From contig HF993083.1 in assembly GCA_000433475.1 (NCBI GenBank), forward strand, positions 10,919 through 74,918: 64,000 nt of DNA, written 5' to 3'. The stretch is from Mycoplasma sp. CAG:956 (GTDB taxonomy: Bacteria > Bacillota_I > Bacilli_A > RF39 > UBA660). Each line of letters starts with the position of its first letter. Within the stretch, counting starts at the first letter, position 1. Position numbers and translations under genes: made by a program. The notes under the pieces were generated by a model. That model saw nothing but the letters and a program-made list of their open reading frames with translations. It made no database searches and had not been told where the DNA came from. Of this stretch, positions 737-28,570 are shown piece after piece.

Positions 737-2890
737 ATGAAATATGAATTATTAGCGCCAGCTGGCGATATGGAATGTTTAAAATGGGCGATAGAAGGTG
801 GTTGTGATGCTATTTATTTAGGTGGTAATCATTTTGGGGCTAGGGCTTATTCTAAGAATTTTTCTGATGAAGAATTGGCTGAGGCAATAAAATATGCCCA
901 TCGTTATGGTGTTAAAGTTTATTTAACTTGCAATACTTTAATTTATGACGAAGAAGTAGAAGAATTTTTAAAATTTGTTCGTTTTGCTCATCAAAATGGT
1001 ATTGATGCGGTTTTAATTCAAGACCTTGGTATGTATGATTTAGTTCATCAAAAGTTTCCTGATTTAGAAATTCATGCTTCTACTCAAATGCATATTCATA
1101 ATTTAGAAGGTGCTTTAGTAGCTAAAAAATTGGGCTTTAAAAGGATAGTATTAGCTCGCGAAACTGATATTGATACGATTAAAGAAATTAAAGAACAAAC
1201 AGGACTTGATGTTGAAGTATTTGTTCATGGGTCTTTATGTGTATCTTATTCTGGACAATGTCTATTTTCTAGTTTAGTTGGTGGTCGTAGTGGTAATCGT
1301 GGGGCTTGTGCTGGTTCTTGTCGTCTACCTTATGATATCGTTGATAAAAATAGCGAAGTGTTAAATGATACAAAAAAATATCCTTTATCAATGAAAGACT
1401 TATGCGCTATTGCAAGTATTGGCAAATTAATGGATATAGGAGTTAATTCTTTTAAGATTGAAGGAAGAATGAAATCAAAAGAATATGTTTATTTAGTTAC
1501 TAAACTTTATCGTAAAGCTATAGATAGTTATTTAGATAATAAAAAAGTAACTATCGATTATGAAATTTTAGATAAATTAAAGAAAGTATTTAATCGTGAA
1601 TATACTTTAGGGTTCTTAAATAATGTTAATAATAATGATGTAATAAATGGTAAACAACCTAATAATGTAGGAGTTAAAATAGGTAAAGTAGTTAAACTTA
1701 CAAAGACTAATGCTTTAATAAAATTAGAGGATGAATTACATATTAATGACGGTTTAAGAATAAAAGGACCAGATGGAGAAATTGGCACCATTGTAAATGA
1801 TTTTTATTTACAAGGTAATCTGGTAAAAGAAGCAAGACCTGGTATGGTAATTAGTTTACCTATTTGGAAGAAACCTAATGTTGGGGATGACGTATTTCTT
1901 ACTTCTTCTAAATATATTGGGGATTGTATTGCAAGTGATATAGAAAATAATCCAAGAAATGTAATGCTTAATGGTAGTATTACTTTACATAAAAATGAAA
2001 AAATTATATTTAAAGTAACTGATGGTTTAAATGTTATTACACTTACAGGACCCGTTGTTGATATAGCTAAAAACAGACCTTTAACTAAAGAAACTATCTT
2101 AGAAAAATTAACTAAATTGGGAGGAACTGTCTATAAATTTAATAAGCTTGATTGTATTTTAGATGATGATATATTTGTACCTTTAACAGCTCTTAATGAG
2201 TTAAGAAGAGAAACTGTAGATAATTTAAATTCTAAAAGAGAAAATATTCCTGAGACAATAGTAGAAAAGGAATATATTAGAAAAGTACCAGAGTTTAAAA
2301 AAGAAAACTCTATTAATGCTTGTGTTTTTAAAGATAGTGATATCGATAATGAATCTAAATATCAAAATATTTATTCTTATCAAGAAGATACTAAGTATTT
2401 AGAGGCATTACCAAATGTAATAAACAAATATTCAAGTGATTTAAAAAATTTATCTTTAAAACCAATTTTAGTTGGGGAGATATGTGGTTTAAATTTAGTT
2501 AATATTCATACTGATTACAGCTTAAATGTTGTTAACTCTTATACAGTTGCTTTTTTACATAGTTTAGGAGTTAAAAAGATAACATTATCTTATGAAATGA
2601 CAAGAAGTCAAATAAAGACTTTAATTGATAAATACCAAGAAAGATATGGATGTTTTCCTAATATCGAAGTAATTGTTTATGGTTATATTAAGATTATGAC
2701 TTTGAAATATAATTTATTAAGTGATTATAAAGAAGCTGTTTATTTGAAAGATAGATTTAATAATAATTATCGAATAAAAATGTTTAATAATTTAACGGAA
2801 ATTTATTATTCTAAAATATTAGATAATAGAAATATTGATTATTTTAGTATTGGAGTTAACCATATTAGATATAACCTTTACAAATTTTAA
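737..2890 (+). CDS. Peptidase U32 family protein (long form)
   Basis: MKYELLAPAG start at ATG 737 (track ORF starts at upstream TTG 728); U32 signature-like EVFVHGSLCVSYSGQCLFS and GNRGACAGSCR. Confidence 0.8.
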   Translation: MKYELLAPAGDMECLKWAIEGGCDAIYLGGNHFGARAYSKNFSDEELAEAIKYAHRYGVKVYLTCNTLIYDEEVEEFLKFVRFAHQNGIDAVLIQDLGMYDLVHQKFPDLEIHASTQMHIHNLEGALVAKKLGFKRIVLARETDIDTIKEIKEQTGLDVEVFVHGSLCVSYSGQCLFSSLVGGRSGNRGACAGSCRLPYDIVDKNSEVLNDTKKYPLSMKDLCAIASIGKLMDIGVNSFKIEGRMKSKEYVYLVTKLYRKAIDSYLDNKKVTIDYEILDKLKKVFNREYTLGFLNNVNNNDVINGKQPNNVGVKIGKVVKLTKTNALIKLEDELHINDGLRIKGPDGEIGTIVNDFYLQGNLVKEARPGMVISLPIWKKPNVGDDVFLTSSKYIGDCIASDIENNPRNVMLNGSITLHKNEKIIFKVTDGLNVITLTGPVVDIAKNRPLTKETILEKLTKLGGTVYKFNKLDCILDDDIFVPLTALNELRRETVDNLNSKRENIPETIVEKEYIRKVPEFKKENSINACVFKDSDIDNESKYQNIYSYQEDTKYLEALPNVINKYSSDLKNLSLKPILVGEICGLNLVNIHTDYSLNVVNSYTVAFLHSLGVKKITLSYEMTRSQIKTLIDKYQERYGCFPNIEVIVYGYIKIMTLKYNLLSDYKEAVYLKDRFNNNYRIKMFNNLTEIYYSKILDNRNIDYFSIGVNHIRYNLYKF

Positions 2891-19680: not shown

Positions 19681-20361
19681 ATGATAAATATATTAATAGT
19701 AGAAGATGATATTAATCTACTTAATATTATAAAGAAGAATTTAGAAAGAGAAGGGTATGTGGTTTATACCGCTTTAGATGGGGTATCTGGGTTAGAAGTA
19801 TTTGAAAATAATCATATTGATTTAATTATTTTAGATTTAATGTTACCTAAATTAGATGGATATGAATTTACGAAGAAAATTAGAAATGAAAAAGAGAATT
19901 TACCTATTATAATGACTACTGCTAAAAGTTTAATGGAAGATAAAAGAATTGCTTTTCAAACTGGTGTTGATGATTATATGACTAAACCCTTAGAAATGGA
20001 AGAACTATTATTAAGGGTAAAAGCCTTACTTAGACGTAGTAAGATTTTAGCTGAAAGAAAAATAGTTATTGGTAAAGTAGTAGTCGATTGTGATGCGATG
20101 ACGGTTACCAGAGATGGTGATGTAACGGAACTAACACAAAAGGAATTTGCCTTGTTATATAAATTACTATCTAATCCTAATAAAATATTTACAAGAAATC
20201 AGTTAATGGATGAGATATGGGGATATGAGTCTAATAGTGATGATAGGACAATCGATGCTCATATTAATAGATTAAGAAGAAAATTTGAAAATTATCCAGA
20301 ATTTGAAATTAAATCGGTTAGGGGGCTAGGGTATAAGGTGGTTAAAAATGAAAAAAATTAA
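19681..20361 (+). CDS. OmpR/PhoB-family response regulator
   Basis: Receiver IDLIILDLMLPKLDG, winged-helix TIDAHINRLRRKF...VRGLGYK. Confidence 0.9.
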   Translation: MINILIVEDDINLLNIIKKNLEREGYVVYTALDGVSGLEVFENNHIDLIILDLMLPKLDGYEFTKKIRNEKENLPIIMTTAKSLMEDKRIAFQTGVDDYMTKPLEMEELLLRVKALLRRSKILAERKIVIGKVVVDCDAMTVTRDGDVTELTQKEFALLYKLLSNPNKIFTRNQLMDEIWGYESNSDDRTIDAHINRLRRKFENYPEFEIKSVRGLGYKVVKNEKN

Positions 20362-21403
20362 TGATGATGAAATAAAGGCTAATCAAAAATTAACTGTTTA
20401 TTTTACAGCTTTAGCATTTTGTACCTTTGCCGCGATTATAATAGCTTTAAGTTTTTTGATATTCTTAGGTAATCAAATACTAGGTTGGGACTATATGATT
20501 GATTTGCACCAGTCCCAGTTTTGGGTTTTAGTCTTTGTGGCTATCATTTTAATTGGGGTAATTTCTTCAATTTTAATTGGTCGTCCTATTTTAAAAGGGA
20601 TTAAAGAGATATCTAACTCCACGAAAAAGATTAGTGAAGGAGACTTTTCGGTACGTATTAAAGAAAATAATACTAAGTTTTTAGGGCGTCTTTCTCATGA
20701 TTTTAATCAAATGGCTAAAGAATTAGAGGGTGTTAAAATATTAAGAAATGATTTTATTAATAATTTTTCCCATGAGTTTAAAACACCAATAAGTTCGATT
20801 AAAAATTATGCAGAAGAGTTAAAAAATAATGATTTATCTAAAGAAGAACAGGATAAATATTTGGATATAATTATTAAAGAAGCAACCAGACTTTCTAACC
20901 TTTCTAATAGTATTTTATATTTATCAAAAGTAGAAAAACAAGAAATTTTAACAGACAAAACGAAGTACGATGTGGGAGAACAAATAAGACAAGCTATTCT
21001 TTTAGAAATGAAAAAAATAGAAGAAAAGAATCTTGAATTAGACTTAGATATATTAGATTATAAATTGTTGTTGAATGAAGATAGTATTGAACAAGTATGG
21101 ATTAATATTTTAGATAATGCAATTAAATTTAGTGAAGCTGGTAAGACTTTAAAAATTACTAGTAAACTTGTTAATGGTTTTTATGAAGTAAGAATTAAAG
21201 ATGAAGGAATTGGTATTGAAGAAGATGATTTACCATTTGTTTGTGAAAAATTTTATAAAGCCGATAAGTCACATTCTGAAGAAGGTAATGGTTTGGGTCT
21301 TTCTTTAGTAAAAAGAATTCTTGAATTGCATAAAGGTAGTATTGAAATAAAAAGTAAAGTAGGTAAAGGAACTTTAGTTATCGTAAAATTACCAATTAAA
21401 TGA
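20348..21403 (+). CDS. Sensor histidine kinase (2 TM, HAMP, HisKA, HATPase_c)
   Basis: H-box FSHEFKTPISSI, G-box GNGLGLSLVKRI; overlaps the regulator gene by 14 nt. Confidence 0.9.
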   Translation: MKKINDDEIKANQKLTVYFTALAFCTFAAIIIALSFLIFLGNQILGWDYMIDLHQSQFWVLVFVAIILIGVISSILIGRPILKGIKEISNSTKKISEGDFSVRIKENNTKFLGRLSHDFNQMAKELEGVKILRNDFINNFSHEFKTPISSIKNYAEELKNNDLSKEEQDKYLDIIIKEATRLSNLSNSILYLSKVEKQEILTDKTKYDVGEQIRQAILLEMKKIEEKNLELDLDILDYKLLLNEDSIEQVWINILDNAIKFSEAGKTLKITSKLVNGFYEVRIKDEGIGIEEDDLPFVCEKFYKADKSHSEEGNGLGLSLVKRILELHKGSIEIKSKVGKGTLVIVKLPIK

Positions 21404-21466: not shown

Positions 21467-23023
21467 ATGAAAAAAAATTATGACTATTATAATAATCCAA
21501 AGATAAATAGTTTTAAAGATTTAATGAATTTAAGTATTAAAAAACCAGATGATATAGCTTTTAAATATTTGGATAATAGTAAAGTTTTAATTAGTAAGAC
21601 TTATAAAGATTTTTATGAAGATGTAAGACTTACTAGTAATTATATAGCTAATCTTTATAATAATAAACATATTGCTTTAATTGGAAAGAATTCATATAAC
21701 TTTTTAGTGTTATTTATGAGTATTGTTATCAGTGGTAATTGTGTAGTTATTATTGATAAAGATTTAGATGCTAATGATATTAAAAAGATGCTTAAGAATA
21801 CTAGTACTAATACTTGCTTTTATTCTAAAGAATATTGTGATAGTTTAAATGGGATTGTTAGTAAGATGTATCCGATTGAAGAGATAGAAAATTATAAATT
21901 AGAAAAAAATTTTATTAGATTTACTAATCCTAAAGATGCTAGTGTTATTTTCTTTACTTCGGGAACAACGGGATTTAACAAGGCTGTTTGTTTAAGTGAA
22001 GAAAATATTTGCTTTGATATTTGGTCTTTAGCTAGTCTATTTAAACCGAATGGCGGTGTATTTGCCGTTTTACCATTTCATCATTCATTCGGACTTATTA
22101 CCGGTATTTTAAAACCATTCTATTATCACGTTCCAATATTTATTAATAGTAGTCTTAAGTCTTTACAAAAAGAAATGAAGCTAGCAGAGGCTAATACAAT
22201 GTTTGTAGTGCCAGTATTTATTGAAACTTTTTATAAGACTATTTGGTCAACAGCTAGAAAGACTAAGCAAGATAAAAAGTTGAAATTAGCGATTAAGTTA
22301 TCTAACAGTCTTTTAAAAATTGGTATCGACTTAAGAAAGAAATTATTCAAATCAGTTACTGACCAGTTTGGGGGAAATTTGGAATATTTTATATGTGGTG
22401 GGGCTTATTTAGATAGCAAATATATTAAATGGTTCCGTAGTATTGGGATTGAAATTTTAAACGGTTATGGTATTACTGAGTGTAGTCCAGTTGTAGCAGT
22501 TAATCGTAATTTGTATGGTAAAGATGGTTCTGTTGGTCTAATTGGTCGTGATATTGATGTTAAAATAATCGACAATGAAATATGTGTTAAAGGTAAAAAT
22601 GTCATGCTGGGGTATTTTAATGATACGAAGGCAACTAAAGAAGTCTTGCAGGACGGTTGGTTTAAAACTGGTGACCTAGGTTATATTGATAAAGATGGAT
22701 TTTTGTTTATAACTGGTAGGAAGAAAAACTTAATAATTTTATCTAATGGTGAAAATATTTTACCAGAAATGATAGAAGAAAAACTAATGAAAGATAAAGG
22801 TATTATGGAAGTAGTGGTTAGTACTTTAAATAATCAGTTAGTAGCCTATATTTATCCAAGTGAGGATTACTTAGGTAATACGACTTATTTTAATAATTTA
22901 ATTTATAAATATAATAAGATAGTTCCTAAAAATCATCAAATAAGTAAGTGTATTTTAAGAACTACGGAATTTAAGAAAAATAATAATCATAAAATTTTAA
23001 GAAATAAAATAATGGAGGAATAA
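21467..23023 (+). CDS. Acyl-AMP ligase / long-chain fatty-acid ligase (AMP-binding superfamily)
   Basis: FFTSGTTGFNKAV, GYGITECS, TGDLGYIDKDGFLFITGRKKNLIILSNGENI. Confidence 0.8.
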   Translation: MKKNYDYYNNPKINSFKDLMNLSIKKPDDIAFKYLDNSKVLISKTYKDFYEDVRLTSNYIANLYNNKHIALIGKNSYNFLVLFMSIVISGNCVVIIDKDLDANDIKKMLKNTSTNTCFYSKEYCDSLNGIVSKMYPIEEIENYKLEKNFIRFTNPKDASVIFFTSGTTGFNKAVCLSEENICFDIWSLASLFKPNGGVFAVLPFHHSFGLITGILKPFYYHVPIFINSSLKSLQKEMKLAEANTMFVVPVFIETFYKTIWSTARKTKQDKKLKLAIKLSNSLLKIGIDLRKKLFKSVTDQFGGNLEYFICGGAYLDSKYIKWFRSIGIEILNGYGITECSPVVAVNRNLYGKDGSVGLIGRDIDVKIIDNEICVKGKNVMLGYFNDTKATKEVLQDGWFKTGDLGYIDKDGFLFITGRKKNLIILSNGENILPEMIEEKLMKDKGIMEVVVSTLNNQLVAYIYPSEDYLGNTTYFNNLIYKYNKIVPKNHQISKCILRTTEFKKNNNHKILRNKIMEE

Positions 23024-23026
23024 AAA

Positions 23027-23263
23027 ATGGAAAATAAAAAAATAATGGTTGGAGAAGTAATTAAATTAATTAGTGAGGTTTGTGAAATACCGGAAGAAAA
23101 GATTAGTGGTAAATCTAATTTAACAACGGATTTAGAGTTAGAATCTTTAGATATTGTTACTTTGATTAGTGAATGTGAAGAAAGATATCATATAACCGTT
23201 CCTGATAAAGATATTAAGACTTTCCAAACTGTTAATGATATTGTGGAATACTTAAATAAGTAA
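23027..23263 (+). CDS. Acyl carrier protein-like carrier
   Basis: 78 aa, LELESLDIVTLI with Ser at the phosphopantetheine position; starts 3 nt after the ligase stop. Confidence 0.7.
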   Translation: MENKKIMVGEVIKLISEVCEIPEEKISGKSNLTTDLELESLDIVTLISECEERYHITVPDKDIKTFQTVNDIVEYLNK

Positions 23264-23301
23264 TTGTTAATTTATAAATTAATAATTAAGATTTTAGAAA
23301 A

Positions 23302-23745
23302 ATGAATAAATTATATATTGAAGAAAATGTTAGTAGTAATGATATTATAAAAGAAATTGCTATTGATAATAATTTAAGTAACTATGTAGTTTTAAAAAAT
23401 AAAAATGGTAAACCTTATTTTAAAGGTAATGATATCTATTTTAATATAAGTAATAAAGATAATATAACAGTTGCAGTTACAAGTTTTAACCCAGTTGGTA
23501 TTGATATTGAAAAATTAACTTTTAAGCTCTCGATAGTTAAACATTTTTTTAGTAAAAATGAACAAGAAATAATTAAGAAAAGTTTAAATAAAGAGTTAGA
23601 CTTTACAACTATATGGGTAAAAAAAGAAGCTTATTTAAAATACTTGGGTTTAGATTTAACAAGTATTAGAAAGATAGATACAACTAAAATAAGTGGTTTT
23701 ACAATAAAAAAATATAAAGAATATATAATAGGAATTAAGGAGTAA
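23302..23745 (+). CDS. 4'-phosphopantetheinyl transferase superfamily protein (short)
   Basis: NKNGKPYF, GIDIEKL and WVKKEAYLKYLG motifs. Confidence 0.6.
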   Translation: MNKLYIEENVSSNDIIKEIAIDNNLSNYVVLKNKNGKPYFKGNDIYFNISNKDNITVAVTSFNPVGIDIEKLTFKLSIVKHFFSKNEQEIIKKSLNKELDFTTIWVKKEAYLKYLGLDLTSIRKIDTTKISGFTIKKYKEYIIGIKE

Positions 23746-23747
23746 GG

Positions 23748-25502
23748 ATGAATTTATTATATTGTGGGGATAGTAATATTAAAGACGGTCTATTTTTGTC
23801 AATAAAATCAATTTTAAAAGTAGAAAAAGAAGCTTTAAATATTTATGTTTTATCAATGGATTATTTAAATTATAAAAAGATAGATAGTGATTTTATTGAT
23901 TATTTAGATACTTTAGTAAAAGAAGTTAATAAGAAGAGTTTTGTTAAACTAATTGATATGACTAGTATTTATCAAGAACATGAATGTAAGGCAAATAAAG
24001 ATACTTTATTTACACCTTATTGTATGTTAAGACTATATAGTGATTTAGTTGATTTACCTAGTAAAATATTATATTTAGATACGGATGTTTTAGTCTATCG
24101 TAGTTTTAAAGATTTTTATAATATTAATAATACTAATTATGAATTAGTAGGGGTACTAGATTACTATGGTAGTCATGTTTATAAGAAAAATCCTTTTAAG
24201 AAAGATTATTTAAATTCTGGAGTATTACTGTTTAATTTGGATTTACTAAAAAAGGAAGATATTTTAAAGAAAGCTCGTAAAATGTGTGCGACTAAAAAGA
24301 TGCTATTGCCTGATCAAAGTGCTTTAAACATTTTGTGTAAACATAAACTTATTGTTGATAGAAAATATAACGAACAAAAAGCTATGCAAAGTGATACGGT
24401 GCTAAGACATTTTACAACGACATTTAAGTTTTTTCCAAGGATTAAAACACAAAAAGTTAAGCCTTGGCAAATTAATAGAATGCATGATGTATTAAACTGT
24501 CATGAATTTGATTGGTTACTTGATGAATATAAGGAGTGGTTACAAATGAATAATAAAATTATACCAATATTTTTTACAATCGATGATGCTTTTGCACCTT
24601 TTGCAAGTGTAGCAATAAAGTCATTACTTGATAATGCTAGTCAAAATTATTTTTATCATATTCATATTGTTAATAATGGTTTAAGTGAAGAAAATATTAC
24701 TAAGATTTTAGAATTAGAAACTAGTTATAGTAAGATAATGTTTAATAATATGGATGAAAGACTTAAAGCAATAACGGATAAAAAAGGAACAAGATTAAGA
24801 GAAGACTACTTTAGTTTGGCTATTTTCTTTAGAATTTTTATCCCTGATTGTTTTAAGGAATATGATAAAGCTTTATATATTGATGCTGATACTATAATAT
24901 TAGATGATATTAGTAAGTTATATAATACGGATTTAGAAGGTAACTATATTGGGGGATGTGTTGATACTTCTTGTTTTGGTATTAAAGATATAACTAATTA
25001 TTTTACCAACGGTGTTGGAGTTGATTACCGTGAGTATATAAATTCTGGTGTTATTCTTTTTGATATGAAAACCTTAAGAGATAAAGGTTTTGCCGATAAA
25101 TTCTTATATTTATTTAATAAATATAACTTTGGCAATGTAGATCCTGACCAATCTTATATAAATGCGATGCTAAAAGGTAAAATTAAGTATTTAGATGGTA
25201 AGTGGGATACTATGCCTACTGAGGGTGGTAAAAGATGTGATAATCCGGGTATTGTTCACTTCAATTTATTTAAGAAACCTTGGCATTATGATAATGTTTT
25301 ATATGAAGAGGAATTTTGGAGTTATGCTAAGAAGACAGCTTATTATGAAAAAATAAAGGAAATTAAAGAAAACTATACTGATGAAGATAAACAAAAAGAC
25401 AATAAGAGCTTAGAAGCAATGTTAAAAAGATGTCGAGAAATAGTTAAAGATGAGGTTACTTTTAAAACAGTCTTTGATAGTGGTAAGGAAGATAGATTGT
25501 AA
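23748..25502 (+). CDS. Glycosyltransferase family 8, two tandem GT8 domains
   Basis: Two copies of the GT8 pattern: LYLDTDVLV...NSGVLLFNL...PDQSALN and IDADTIIL...NSGVILFDM...PDQSYIN. Confidence 0.8.
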   Translation: MNLLYCGDSNIKDGLFLSIKSILKVEKEALNIYVLSMDYLNYKKIDSDFIDYLDTLVKEVNKKSFVKLIDMTSIYQEHECKANKDTLFTPYCMLRLYSDLVDLPSKILYLDTDVLVYRSFKDFYNINNTNYELVGVLDYYGSHVYKKNPFKKDYLNSGVLLFNLDLLKKEDILKKARKMCATKKMLLPDQSALNILCKHKLIVDRKYNEQKAMQSDTVLRHFTTTFKFFPRIKTQKVKPWQINRMHDVLNCHEFDWLLDEYKEWLQMNNKIIPIFFTIDDAFAPFASVAIKSLLDNASQNYFYHIHIVNNGLSEENITKILELETSYSKIMFNNMDERLKAITDKKGTRLREDYFSLAIFFRIFIPDCFKEYDKALYIDADTIILDDISKLYNTDLEGNYIGGCVDTSCFGIKDITNYFTNGVGVDYREYINSGVILFDMKTLRDKGFADKFLYLFNKYNFGNVDPDQSYINAMLKGKIKYLDGKWDTMPTEGGKRCDNPGIVHFNLFKKPWHYDNVLYEEEFWSYAKKTAYYEKIKEIKENYTDEDKQKDNKSLEAMLKRCREIVKDEVTFKTVFDSGKEDRL

Positions 25503-26365
25503 TGATTATCGGTGGTTCGAAAAAAGATGTAATTAAAAATATTGAACAAAATGTCTTAGATAATGAACTTAATAAAAAAGTAGAAGTTAATGATGCGATA
25601 TTAAGTGATGAGGAAATAACTAAGTTATTAGATACTTTTTATAAAAATAAAGGTAAGAAAATAAGATATGGTATTAAACATGCAATTGCTAATATGACAG
25701 TAAGTAAGTATATGAAAATGCTTGATAAAGATATAGTTATTAATGGGGCTGAAAAGTTAAAAAATGTGGATTTAAGTAAGGGAGCAATTATTACATCTAA
25801 TCATTTTAATCCTTTAGATACTTTTATTATTAGAAAATTAGTAGAAAAAGTCTTAAAGAAAGATTTGTATATAGTTATTCAAGATACAAATTTAGCCATG
25901 CCTGGTAGTTTAGGTTTTTTAATGAATTATTTAAATGTTATACCAGTTAGTAAAAGTCCAACTTATTTAGCGGGAACATTTAAAGAAAATTTAAGAAAAA
26001 TTCTAAATGCTGGTAATATTGTTTTGATTTATCCAGAAGAAGAAATGTGGTTTAATTATCGTAAGATAAGACCATTAAAAAGAGGAGCTTATCAGTATGC
26101 TGCTATTCTTAATGTACCCGTAATATCTTGTTTTACAAAGATAATAGATACAGATATAGTTGATAACGAAGAATTTAATAAGACTACTTATGAGTTAAAT
26201 GTTTTGGGAGTTTTATATCCTGATAAAGATGTTAGTCCTAGAGTAAATAGTATTAATATGTTAAATGAAGATTATGAGTGGAAGAAACAGGCATATGAAA
26301 ATGTTTATCATAAAAAGTTAGAATATACTTTTTCTGCTGATGATATTGCTGGTTATAGATGGTAG
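25502..26365 (+). CDS. Lysophospholipid/1-acyl-glycerol-3-phosphate acyltransferase family (LPLAT) protein
   Basis: HX4D motif NHFNPLD and IYPEEE block; ATG overlaps the GT8 stop by 1 nt. Confidence 0.65.
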   Translation: MIIGGSKKDVIKNIEQNVLDNELNKKVEVNDAILSDEEITKLLDTFYKNKGKKIRYGIKHAIANMTVSKYMKMLDKDIVINGAEKLKNVDLSKGAIITSNHFNPLDTFIIRKLVEKVLKKDLYIVIQDTNLAMPGSLGFLMNYLNVIPVSKSPTYLAGTFKENLRKILNAGNIVLIYPEEEMWFNYRKIRPLKRGAYQYAAILNVPVISCFTKIIDTDIVDNEEFNKTTYELNVLGVLYPDKDVSPRVNSINMLNEDYEWKKQAYENVYHKKLEYTFSADDIAGYRW

Positions 26366-26387
26366 AGTACTTAGTACTCTTTTTTTT
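26364..26387 (+). terminator. Rho-independent terminator of the lipid/glycosyl cluster
   Basis: agagtac tta gtactct hairpin followed by T7. Confidence 0.7.
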
Positions 26388-26432
26388 GTATGAATATATA
26401 TTTATTGGGAATAATATATTCTTTAGATAATA

Positions 26433-26725
26433 TTTTCATAGAGTTAAAAACTCTATGAATACGTATTTTCGGATATTATTTTTACCTTATACCTAAATAA
26501 TATCATATCTTTAAGCCTTTTTAAAGAATATATTTAAAGATAAATTATCTTTTTATAGTCAAATTTCTAGTCAAACAATATCTTTTAAAACCTAGGTGAA
26601 TACTGGCTTTGCTAAAAATTATTCTAGTCAGAAAACAAATTTCATTCTAGTCGAAATTATAGTCAAATAGACTTCAAACTCAGTATTCACCTAATATTTT
26701 CATAGAGTTTTTAACTCTATGAAAA
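26433..26725. repeat. Inverted-repeat-bounded upstream module, copy 1
   Basis: 26433..26459 and 26699..26725 are exact reverse complements (27/27). Nested 13-bp IR at 26593..26605 / 26681..26693. RGTCAR hexamer pairs start at 26557/26569 and 26649/26661. Confidence 0.85.
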
Positions 26726-26809
26726 CAGAATTAATGGATATGTATATTATTTTTAATTTTGGTAGGCTATAAGTGTTGCATATTATAGCTAGAAATGGTT
26801 TATATTAAT

Positions 26810-28570
26810 ATGAAAAAATTTAATAAAGATAAGTATTTAAAGAAATTAAAATTTAATAAGTATAAGAGATACTTATATATAGGAATACCTTGTATATTAG
26901 TATTATTAATAGGAATATACTTTGCTTATTCAAAGTTTAGTGTTTTTAAAGAGGAAGAAGTAGTAAGAACTACGGTAGAAAGTTTTATCTCTGATGATGC
27001 TGTTATTGGAGCTTATATAGATGGAGAATACTCTAAAACTATTCCTGGTAAGAATGATGGTTATATAGTAGATAAAATAGTCTGTGATAATGATGCAACT
27101 GCTTCTTGGAATAATGATTCTTGGGGAATAGTATTAACTAATCTAACTAAGAGAACTAAATGTAATGTGTATTTTAAGAAAGGCATAAAAATTGGTAATT
27201 TGACTGCTTTTGTTGATGAGTTAGGTAAATGTCCAACTATCAATAGTGATGGTACAGTTAATGTAACTAGTGCTGAAGCAACGGATGGTTATGTTTGTAG
27301 TGCAAAAGACGCATATGGAACAAGTTATTATTATCGTGGAAATGTTACAAACAACTATGTAAAGTTTGGTAAATGGTCTGATGATTTACCGACATCGTTT
27401 GTTGATGGTGATGGTAATATATATGATTCTTATGATGATTGTACAAGTTTTGGTGGTGGTGATTGTACTGAGTTAGCTCTTGCTGGAAAAAGTATGTACT
27501 GGCGAATTGTTCGTATTAATGGCGATGGTACCGTTAGAGTAATCTATGATGGAACTTCAGCTCATACCAATGGTGAAAGTAGTATGGATAGACAAATTGG
27601 AACATCAGCATTCAATTCATATTGGAAGAAGGATAATGTTCAAGAAGCTACTGAATCATATGTTTATGATAATGCTGGTGTTGGCTATATGTATGGTAAT
27701 CGTGATGCTATGGTAGAAACCACATCATCTTTTATATCAACTAGTTTTCAAAATAATTATACATATTATATTGCTAAAGAGTATACATATGATGCCACAA
27801 CCGATAGATTTACTTTAAAAGATCCGATTGCCGTATTAGGTAGTGCTATGACCTCAGACTATGTAGGCTATTATACTTTTGGAAATTCAAATGTTAGTTA
27901 TTCTAATAGCCGATTGATGAAAATATTTGGAGTAACAGCTGGTCGTATAGATGCCGATGTAGAATATGGTTATATCACGTATGGGACTTCAAGTAAAGAA
28001 GTAGCTCAGACTAATATAAATGACTCAACTATAAAAGCTTACTTAGATAATTGGTATAAAACTAATATTTTCGGTACGAAAAATGAACAATATTTAGCGG
28101 ATAATATTTTTTGCAATGATCGCAGTTTTGCATCTAGTAATTCAGGAACTGGAGCTGGAGTAAGTAAAACATATTATAATTGGTATAATTGGCATACATC
28201 TAAGTCTAATTTAAAATGCCCACAAAAAAATGATGCCTTTACGGTAAGCGATACTACCAATGGTAATGGAGCACTAACATATCCAGTCGGACTTTTAAGT
28301 ACGGATGAAATAGTACTAGCCGGTGGATTGGATAAAGAAAATAGTGATTATTACTTATACTTTGGGAACTGGTGGTGGACTTCCTCACCATACGAATTTG
28401 CCAGCAGCAGTGCTGACATGCGTTATGTGGCTCAGAGTGGTCTTGCGAGTGCCAAAGGCTTTGGTGCTGCTGATTCCAGCCGTGGTGTTCGTCCAGTTAT
28501 CAATCTGAAGGCTGAAGTGCTGGCACAAGGCTCCGGGACAGCTTCGGATCCTTATCGCATTTCTTCGTAG
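26810..28570 (+). CDS. Large membrane-anchored/secreted protein, family paralog A (intact)
   Basis: MKKFNKDKYLKK... basic N-terminus plus TM. Family blocks GKCPTINSDGTVNVT, YGTSYYYRGNVTNNYVKFG, YWRIVRINGDGTVRVIYDGTSAH, NIFCNDR, CPQKNDAFTVSD, YPVGLLSTDE, GVRPVINLK. Confidence 0.8.
   Translation: MKKFNKDKYLKKLKFNKYKRYLYIGIPCILVLLIGIYFAYSKFSVFKEEEVVRTTVESFISDDAVIGAYIDGEYSKTIPGKNDGYIVDKIVCDNDATASWNNDSWGIVLTNLTKRTKCNVYFKKGIKIGNLTAFVDELGKCPTINSDGTVNVTSAEATDGYVCSAKDAYGTSYYYRGNVTNNYVKFGKWSDDLPTSFVDGDGNIYDSYDDCTSFGGGDCTELALAGKSMYWRIVRINGDGTVRVIYDGTSAHTNGESSMDRQIGTSAFNSYWKKDNVQEATESYVYDNAGVGYMYGNRDAMVETTSSFISTSFQNNYTYYIAKEYTYDATTDRFTLKDPIAVLGSAMTSDYVGYYTFGNSNVSYSNSRLMKIFGVTAGRIDADVEYGYITYGTSSKEVAQTNINDSTIKAYLDNWYKTNIFGTKNEQYLADNIFCNDRSFASSNSGTGAGVSKTYYNWYNWHTSKSNLKCPQKNDAFTVSDTTNGNGALTYPVGLLSTDEIVLAGGLDKENSDYYLYFGNWWWTSSPYEFASSSADMRYVAQSGLASAKGFGAADSSRGVRPVINLKAEVLAQGSGTASDPYRISS

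Follow-up and report, generated by a model that had tools for sequence, protein, structure and literature searches.

In Bacteroides fragilis and Clostridioides difficile, one recombinase (Mpi and RecV, respectively) flips many short promoter-bearing or regulatory segments upstream of genes for surface structures (polysaccharides in the case of Mpi; for RecV, at cwpV, flgB, and cmrRST), and most of these loci are OFF. Mpi is a serine recombinase and RecV acts on dissimilar, imperfect repeats; to our knowledge, neither system has been described with palindromic half-sites around a locus-specific center or with conserved internal direct repeats. In loxP, FRT, and dif sites, inverted arms flank an asymmetric spacer of 6-8 bp, which sets the polarity of the site and must match between partners, and recombination between inverted sites inverts the DNA between them. 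Here we analyze a stretch of 64,000 nucleotides from Mycoplasma sp. CAG:956 (GenBank assembly GCA_000433475.1, contig HF993083.1), which we call the window. The window contains two short elements bounded by inverted sites, modules A and B, which lie upstream of two paralogous membrane-protein genes (genes A and B). Module A is very probably a promoter inverton that is flipped by a tyrosine recombinase acting in trans, with one such switch for each paralogue of a large family.

The mpl (P35) system of Mycoplasma penetrans, as it is outlined in PMC2268961 (citing Horino et al. 2003), consists of 38 mpl lipoprotein genes in chromosomal clusters, most of which are independently switched by their own invertible promoter. 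The same outline names Xer-like tyrosine recombinases as candidates for the switching of many loci, and it mentions the promoter invertons of Bacteroides (PMC2268961). Like mpl, the system in the window involves a large family of paralogous, probably surface-located proteins, in which each gene has a putative invertible promoter of its own, in a low-GC host of the Bacilli/Mollicutes radiation. The mpl switches reportedly have repeats of about 12 bp around about 135 bp. Here, in contrast, palindromic 9-7-9 sites of 25-27 bp bound a segment of about 230-240 bp that carries two TTGAC pairs; furthermore, the proteins are transmembrane-anchored, with a weak match to DUF6273, instead of being lipoproteins, and the candidate enzyme is a 355-aa integrase-type protein with an extra N-terminal domain. 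We regard the likeness to mpl (MYPE2900/8180 included) as one of organization rather than of demonstrated ancestry. Neither the motif nor a case of arm-type sites in an invertible system turned up in full-text searches of the literature. The kind of system is known; the family of sites and modules is new.

The two arms of module A (26433-26459 and 26699-26725) are reverse complements of each other at 27/27 positions and are 239 nt apart. Both hold the palindrome TTCATAGAG-N7-CTCTATGAA, in which 9-bp half-sites surround a 7-nt center. Because the left center (TTAAAAA) and the right center (TTTTTAA) are mutual reverse complements, the arms are inverted and are not direct copies. When we scanned the 64-kb window for the palindrome, permitting up to 2 mismatches, we found three occurrences (at 26435, 26699, and 59503), as compared to 0.01 expected from shuffled sequences. 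The third occurrence is the start of a second, diverged copy of the whole module (module B), and downstream of it is gene B, whose product is 44% identical to that of gene A. The features of both modules are listed in Table 1. An earlier reading of module A from the DNA letters alone (the sequence-only reading) had described the perfect 27-bp inverted repeat, the asymmetric center within each 9+9 palindrome, a nested 13-bp inverted repeat, the terminator upstream, and the start codon of gene A, and all of these are borne out; it had not remarked on the second copy. In particular, the start codon agrees with the gene call in public assemblies (586 aa).

Table 1. Coordinates of the features of modules A and B in the window
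Feature	Position	Strand	Remarks
Left core recombination site, module A	26435..26459	.	TTCATAGAG-TTAAAAA-CTCTATGAA, 9-7-9; perfect inverted repeat reaches 26433
Invertible 239-bp segment, module A	26460..26698	.	Exact reverse complement in other assemblies
Right core site, module A	26699..26723	.	TTCATAGAG-TTTTTAA-CTCTATGAA; inverted repeat reaches 26725
Candidate promoter P1	26497..26525	-	TTTAAA-17 nt-TG-a-TATTAT, extended -10 at 26497-26505; points left, away from gene A
Promoter-proximal direct-repeat pair TTGACTAGAAATTTGAC, module A	26558..26574	-	Candidate accessory (arm-type) sites and/or upstream promoter element
Second direct-repeat pair TTGACTATAATTTCGAC, module A	26650..26666	-	57 nt from right core site
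Nested inverted repeat TAGGTGAATACTG, module A	left copy 26593..26605, right copy 26681..26693	.	In ~30% of modules
Intrinsic terminator of upstream operon	26364..26387	+	Hairpin 26364-26380 and T-run
Gene A, 586 aa	26810..28570	+	Belongs to the module-preceded family; transmembrane helix at the N-terminus, body rich in beta structure, weak match to DUF6273
Left core site, module B	59503..59527	.	TTCATAGAG-TTACATA-CTCTATGAA
Invertible 229-bp segment, module B	59528..59756	.	Flipped in gut-metagenome contig L141
Right core site, module B	59757..59781	.	Degenerate ATCATAAAG-TATGTAA-CTCTAGGAA, 3 mismatches; center is the reverse complement of the left one
Extended -10, module B (TG-a-TATATT)	59565..59573	-	Faces away from gene B
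TTGAC repeat pair TTGACTAGAAATTTGAC, module B	59708..59724	-	Second, weaker pair CTGACCACAATTTTGACC at 59614-59631
Gene B, 586 aa	59869..61629	+	44% identity to protein A

Comparison of independent assemblies shows that the segment of module A is a real DNA flip-switch. (Labels such as L001 are our handles for matching loci.) ENA contig ERZ1310109 NODE_136 (L001, which is the same as L116) encodes exactly protein A. Across 7,761 bp it matches the window at 100% identity, with the sole exception of positions 26460-26698, which are present as the exact reverse complement. A look-up of the acyltransferase gene upstream of module A gave ten places from different samples, nine of which bear the module. 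Five assemblies are in the window's state (L114, L115, L117, L121, and L122), and module A is flipped in three samples (L116, L119, and L120), with flanks that are identical or nearly so. In the other two, a single site is left and the interior is deleted (L118) or an unrelated phage-type integrase replaces the module (L123). L114 and L119 have the same 456-aa gene downstream and show 45 mismatches over 6.6 kb of flanking sequence, and their interiors are exactly reverse-complementary.

Module B was found in its flipped form by a junction-anchored scan of metagenome contigs. One contig (L141) is 98% identical to window positions 55011-59526, a flank of 4.5 kb, and then continues with window positions 59783 to 59515, reversed. 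Because the half-sites of module B are imperfect, this flipped copy bears on the place of exchange. In this single cross-strain comparison, a model in which the outer half-sites stay and the inner half-sites travel leaves 1 mismatch, as compared to 2 if whole arms travel or 5 if whole arms stay, and the exchange falls between position 5 of the outer arm and position 2 of the inner arm. That the outer half-sites stay while the inner ones travel places the exchange in or beside the 7-bp center. Thus, for both modules, both orientations are found with unchanged flanks in independent assemblies, which supports the invertible switch that was one of two interpretations offered by the sequence-only reading.

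As all of this evidence comes from metagenome assemblies, we considered whether the flipped copies might be assembly artefacts at the inverted repeat. This is extremely unlikely: a 27-bp repeat is shorter than the reads and the k-mers and creates no ambiguity by itself; flipped copies were recovered from four distinct samples and assemblers; and the imperfect half-sites of module B were recombined in the pattern of a site-specific exchange. Contig breaks at these sites have a simple explanation if the switch is active. Among unpaired sites, 14 of 18 are at contig ends, and five contigs from metagenome-assembled genomes (MAGs) terminate exactly at the inner edge of a site, with the unique flank kept. 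This is the behavior that would be expected of a de Bruijn assembler if both orientations coexist in a sample. (Classifying the DNA beside contig-end sites by its k-mers gave no discrimination in such AT-rich sequence, and direct inspection was used instead.)

Other changes were also seen at sites of this kind. At the module A locus of the same species, a solo 9-7-9 site lies between the same flanks (L118 3935-3959, sample ERZ28581440), and solo sites are found about 186 bp upstream of the recombinase gene that we discuss below in 6 of 8 assemblies (L133, L134, L136, L137, L138, and L140). These solo sites suggest that the cassette is occasionally lost by an irreversible deletion, which would leave the gene without a promoter. 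In L123, the acyltransferase terminator is followed by a gene for a 396-aa phage-type integrase (1566-2756, minus strand; weak match to Arm-DNA-bind_4, with SAM_3 and Phage_integrase) and by small open reading frames (ORFs). It shares 33% identity over 42 aa with the inverton recombinase, to which it is not related. The insert, which probably represents an integrated element, takes the place of both module A and gene A. Downstream of module A, strains of the species carry different genes (456, 500, 586, or 591 aa in L114-L122) next to a conserved upstream operon, so that the switched gene is itself a hypervariable cassette.

The sequence-only reading had proposed a search for further copies of the palindrome. 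A scan with one genome per species returned at least 111 blocks, and nearly all of the blocks listed are from 12 species of gut MAGs (described as "uncultured Bacilli" or "Tenericutes UMGS735"). The organism of the window falls in the same genus, with about 88% nucleotide identity across thrS and conserved synteny between thrS and module B. Among the matches listed, we assembled a set of 106 modules, including the two in the window, with at most 3 mismatches per site. The centers of the two sites are exact reverse complements in 104 of the 106 modules and direct copies in none, and there are 41 distinct centers. Across the 212 core sites, the half-sites are 98-100% conserved, as compared to pairwise identity of about 58% for the interiors. 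The spacing between sites falls into two classes, 252-255 bp and 262-266 bp. The center base beside the inner half-site is A in 99% of the 212 sites, and the base beside the outer half-site is T in 83%; because of this unequal constraint, the variable core is effectively 6 bp and the arms are not equivalent. As in loxP, FRT, and dif, the centers of these 9-7-9 sites match between partners. They vary between modules. Unlike in those systems, dozens of site pairs, with their 41 centers, coexist naturally, and one position of the center is nearly invariant. (The identity of partner centers could also come from heteroduplex segregation during repeated inversion.) The orientation of the interiors was assigned by all-against-all k-mer comparison; a single marker motif, GTATTCAC, was too poorly conserved for this and was dropped. 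The nested inverted repeat of module A extends to 19 nt at 89% identity, but it is a subfamily feature only: a nested repeat of at least 8 nt is present in 32/106 modules, versus 3/106 shuffled controls.

These findings also bear on the other interpretation from the sequence-only reading, which considered paired operators for a looping regulator to be equally valid. In this scenario, the palindromes are operators for a dimeric regulator that loops the DNA, and there is no inversion. The half-sites are perfect palindromes and the two spacing classes differ by about 10.5 bp, both of which speak for this scenario. However, exact inversions in several independent assemblies, for both modules, contradict looping as the sole explanation, and operators do not require the centers to co-vary as reverse complements (104/106). 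Looping operators are not needed to explain the data, and as a full account of the modules we find them barely credible. Looping may still occur within the recombination complex, in keeping with the quantized spacing described below.

The modules are tied to one gene family. They lie 9-98 nt upstream of family genes, and of 100 ORFs that read away from a module, 91 belong to a single superfamily that includes proteins A and B. The sequence-only reading would have been refuted by a ubiquitous intergenic repeat with no relation to this family; the palindrome is indeed widespread, but its tie to the family runs counter to that. This superfamily has over 7,000 unnamed homologues; a search of NCBIfam with proteins A and B gave no match, and the AlphaFold model of protein A (mean predicted local distance difference test, or pLDDT, of 50) is too poor for a fold search. 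At least 25 modules are present in one MAG, with five in tandem in a single 8-kb block. In this block (MAG CAKOSN01, contig 20; L033 1236-7572), each module precedes a family gene of about 370 aa and all five are in the OFF state as defined below, so that each promoter points antisense into the 3' end of the neighboring family gene.

More than 100 copies of an element of about 290 bp with conserved terminal inverted repeats could also be taken for mobile elements, similar to miniature inverted-repeat transposable elements, that spread by transposition. But target-site duplications at the modules are not above the control level, and a constant position, 9-98 nt upstream of members of a single gene family, is what co-duplication of module and gene would give. 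Furthermore, the site is essentially absent from viral contigs (2 matches in 2.9 million contigs), so the core site is not a phage feature. Spread by transposition is therefore a most improbable origin for the modules.

The interior of the modules has a conserved promoter-like element. An extended -10 element (TGnTATAAT with at most 1 mismatch) occurs at a fixed position on one strand, about 37 nt from one core site, in 102 of the 106 modules. On the other strand, the element occurs in 10 of 106 modules and at scattered positions. Relative to the family gene, the conserved element faces away in 81 of 91 modules and is flipped in 10 of 91. In 32 of the 91 modules, the start codon is no more than 39 nt from the site, too close for a fixed promoter to fit in between. 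We infer that P1, the instance of this element in module A, is the promoter that is actually used. Because the conserved extended -10 faces away from the gene, the window would be in the OFF state for both genes A and B, and L001, L119, L120, and L141 would be in the ON state. An OFF state would also account for two correct remarks of the sequence-only reading: the TTGACT-type repeats are directed away from the gene, and a convincing promoter facing it is missing. With 81 modules OFF and 10 ON, this is the pattern of a multigene family in which there are many paralogues, each has its own switch, and most are OFF. It is similar to the Mpi and RecV systems in having many promoter segments, most loci OFF, and one remote enzyme (a candidate, in our case).

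The recombinase gene beside some modules seems to be insulated from the switch. At three loci (L130 30-190, L135 3190-3270, and L003 2300-2480), module and recombinase gene are separated by a long hairpin with a T-run, which is oriented against transcripts from the module; beyond the hairpin comes a separate TGnTATAAY promoter for the recombinase gene. This arrangement helps to decide whether the inversion might be real but the states reversed, so that the window is ON through an unrecognized plus-strand promoter or with the RGTCAA repeats as activator sites. The window's state is the more common one, both across modules (81/91) and, for module A, among the orientation-called assemblies besides the window (5/8), and the repeats, when taken on the plus strand, point to the gene. 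In contrast, the sole position-conserved promoter element (102/106) lies on the other strand, with few and scattered matches on the plus strand; the terminators protect the recombinase gene on the side to which P1 points; and multigene phase-variable families usually hold most of their members OFF. We consider reversed states to be unlikely and describe the window as OFF in what follows.

The window itself has no recombinase gene: as the sequence-only reading had stated, no invertase is found, either by tblastn with two members of the recombinase family or by Pfam scans of 46 ORFs of the window. Elsewhere, genes for tyrosine recombinases recur beside the core site. In a Clostridia MAG (L023), an inverted pair of sites with centers TAAACCC and GGGTTTA bounds a 1,466-bp segment that contains the gene for a 383-aa tyrosine recombinase, and homologues of this protein adjoin the site in L111 and L067. 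A MAG of the window's clade encodes a 355-aa recombinase 195 bp from a module (L003); a 1.5-kb contig with a homologue starts exactly at the site (L130); and at eight of eight further loci (L133-L140), a homologue lies 186 bp from the site, which is part of a full module facing a 657-aa family gene in two cases and is a solo site in the other six. Altogether, five lineages, with three species of the window's clade among them, have a recombinase gene beside the site or inside the bounded segment. The genes next to the recombinase encode the housekeeping proteins RmuC, RNase J, and BacA, and there are no mobile-element genes among them.

The recombinase contains PF14659 and PF00589, and the catalytic motifs RIGE, HALRHT, GHS, and LYVH can be read in its sequence. 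Its nearest relatives in PDB are structures of Tn1549 Int, with XerA and XerH also matching, and its family has over 7,400 homologues. The N-terminal region of about 50 residues is highly conserved and is modeled (pLDDT 86) as a three-stranded sheet followed by a helix (beta-beta-beta-alpha), which is the topology of the arm-binding domains of integrases. We infer that the enzyme that flips the modules is a chromosomal tyrosine recombinase of about 355 aa, which is encoded elsewhere and acts in trans. Close homologues (P0001, P0002, P0012, P0026, and others) are often found only on contigs of 1.2-2 kb that barely exceed the gene, which suggests that assemblies break on both sides of it, as expected beside invertible or repeated sites.

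Could another enzyme be responsible, for instance a serine invertase or a tyrosine invertase that is small and FimB-like, with the adjacency of recombinase and site being a coincidence or reflecting the attachment (att) site of a mobile element? The 355-aa recombinase is absent from the window, one species (L124) has no site within 4 kb of the gene, and the recombinase family is very large and resembles the integrases of conjugative transposons. But coincidence does not readily account for adjacency in five lineages or for a gene inside a site-bounded segment, and the housekeeping neighbors do not indicate a mobile element. The genes that recur beside the sites are tyrosine recombinases, and a 25-bp site with an odd 7-bp center fits these enzymes better than it fits serine invertases such as Hin, Gin, or Mpi, whose sites are of even length with a 2-bp crossover core and which work with an enhancer. 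Another enzyme is improbable, and the tyrosine recombinase remains our candidate.

A group of invertons in gut Clostridia (Clostridium sp. D5 and Intestinimonas) resembles one of these loci. According to PMC11892184, "inverton group 139 / invertase group 35" has read-validated inversions, inverted repeats of up to 25 bp, and lengths of about 230-256 bp, and its members almost always adjoin a gene for a tyrosine-type recombinase/integrase. By description, L067 (Clostridiales; sites 228 bp apart and beside a recombinase gene) is similar, and group 139 may have the same class of site as TTCATAGAG-N7-CTCTATGAA. That study concerned cultured community strains and covered neither this uncultured Bacilli clade nor a multigene family with dozens of copies.

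The same core site also bounds longer segments in Clostridia and Lachnospiraceae (L023 3906-5396, L096 6653-7248, and L037 4250-5394). The segment in L096 is 571 bp long, has a TTGACA-17-TATCAT promoter, and lies beside a GT2 glycosyltransferase operon, and the segment in L037 is 1,120 bp long and lies beside the gene for an MscS channel. L103 (6647) together with L044 (527) gives a pair of sites about 1.9 kb apart. The site-adjacent ORFs in L023, L037, and L096, which encode a short-chain dehydrogenase/reductase (SDR), MscS, and GT2, respectively, were considered as candidates and are not recombinases.

Besides the core sites and the promoter element, the modules contain short direct repeats. 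The sequence-only reading had noticed RGTCAR hexamers at 12-bp spacing in module A, and these are real: read on the minus strand as TYGACN-N6-TYGAC, such pairs number 127 in 30 kb of modules versus 9 in 696 kb of flanking DNA, an enrichment of about 320-fold. Two TTGAC pairs on one strand, at about 65 and about 155-200 bp from one core site, are also found in the Lachnospiraceae segments (L022, L037, and L096), whose interiors are otherwise unrelated to the modules and are longer. Within the modules, all four internal distances are quantized in steps of about 10-11 bp, with 1 bp of jitter in either direction: 56-58 or 67-68 from core site to pair; 79-81 or 90-93 from pair to pair; 61-63, 71-74, or 80-83 from pair to -10; and 26 or 36-38 from the -10 to the far core site. 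The repeats and their steps of about 10.5 bp suggest a phased recombination complex, in which the TTGAC repeats might, as a hypothesis, be arm-type sites. The candidate enzyme is like lambda Int and the Int proteins of Tn916 and Tn1549 in its extra N-terminal domain, with direct repeats that stand apart from the core sites at phased distances. Those proteins integrate and excise mobile elements, whereas our candidate is chromosomal and its reaction would be inversion. A more specific and quite tentative possibility is that the enzyme is a heterobivalent, integrase-type invertase, with its N-terminus on the four TTGAC repeats and its core-binding and catalytic domains on the 9-7-9 sites, so as to form an intasome-like "invertasome"; the 41 centers would limit recombination between switches. 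If so, dozens of chromosomal loci would have adopted the architecture of an att site for the inversion of promoters.

Taken together, we propose the following mechanism. Each end of a module is a complete core site of the tyrosine-recombinase type, with 9-bp inverted half-sites (TTCATAGAG and CTCTATGAA) and an asymmetric 7-bp center in which strands are exchanged, and recombination between the two inverted sites flips the segment of about 230-240 bp between them; this site architecture and the inversion are observed, as are the conservation and the strand of the promoter element. The segment would carry an outward-facing sigma-A-type promoter with an extended -10, located about 37 nt away from one of the core sites. 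As the segment lies in the window, this promoter would face away from the membrane-protein gene (OFF), and after inversion it would read through the core site into the gene (ON). The recombinase of about 355 aa, with a SAM-like core-binding domain and a catalytic domain similar to those of Tn1549 Int, would be encoded elsewhere and act in trans on dozens of modules. With one module per paralogue, the outcome would be combinatorial phase variation of cell-surface proteins. More speculatively, the two TTGACN-N6-TTGAC pairs, at their helically phased distances, might help to assemble the synaptic complex. As part of this joint explanation, positions 59501-59783 are very likely a second promoter inverton in the window.

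Several points weigh against parts of this account. Each orientation call was made on a consensus assembly, and the assemblies represent different samples; switching within one population is thus an indirect conclusion, which the contig breaks at sites support. The -35 element of P1 is weak (TTTAAA), and in generic sigma-70 promoter scans of the AT-rich window, matches were no more common than in shuffled sequences. The TTGAC repeats could equally be -35-like elements or activator or upstream promoter elements. Sharing of centers within a genome is not depleted (24 pairs with identical centers, versus 26.5 +/- 5.2 on permutation), and there is no evidence of selection for private centers within a genome. 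The recombinase is found in congeners only, and the cluster P0002/P0242 is not placed in the window's species. Finally, the N-terminus of the recombinase had no significant match to arm-binding domains in relaxed Pfam searches, a PDB profile search, or Foldseek.

Upstream of module A is an operon (21467-26365) for an AMP-binding enzyme, a 78-aa carrier protein, a phosphopantetheinyl transferase, a two-domain GT8 glycosyltransferase, and an acyltransferase, which looks like a cluster for modification of the cell envelope. It is preceded by an OmpR-type two-component pair (19681-21403). The sequence-only reading had suggested the OmpR-type regulator and the sigma factors as possible binders of the element, and no link between them and the element emerged. 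The terminator at the end of the operon shields gene A from upstream read-through. An Rfam scan of window positions 25000-28000 gave no match to a structured RNA at E <= 1.

For annotation, TTCATAGAG-N7-CTCTATGAA flags such switches in assemblies of Bacilli, Lachnospiraceae, and other Clostridia, and accounts for recurrent contig breaks. The format is simple (9-bp arms, a programmable 7-bp center, a cassette of about 240 bp, and one candidate recombinase), so that these are easily tested and possibly orthogonal inversion sites, and the phased internal repeats provide a falsifiable hypothesis about how an integrase-type enzyme might serve as an invertase. For the organisms, our results indicate that uncultured low-GC Bacilli of the human gut ("Tenericutes" in one record) devote dozens of switches of the same format to one large, uncharacterized family of membrane-anchored proteins. 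The implication is that the cell surface varies combinatorially, in a way comparable to Mycoplasma penetrans or Bacteroides, and the protein family is probably exposed and under pressure from the host or from phages.

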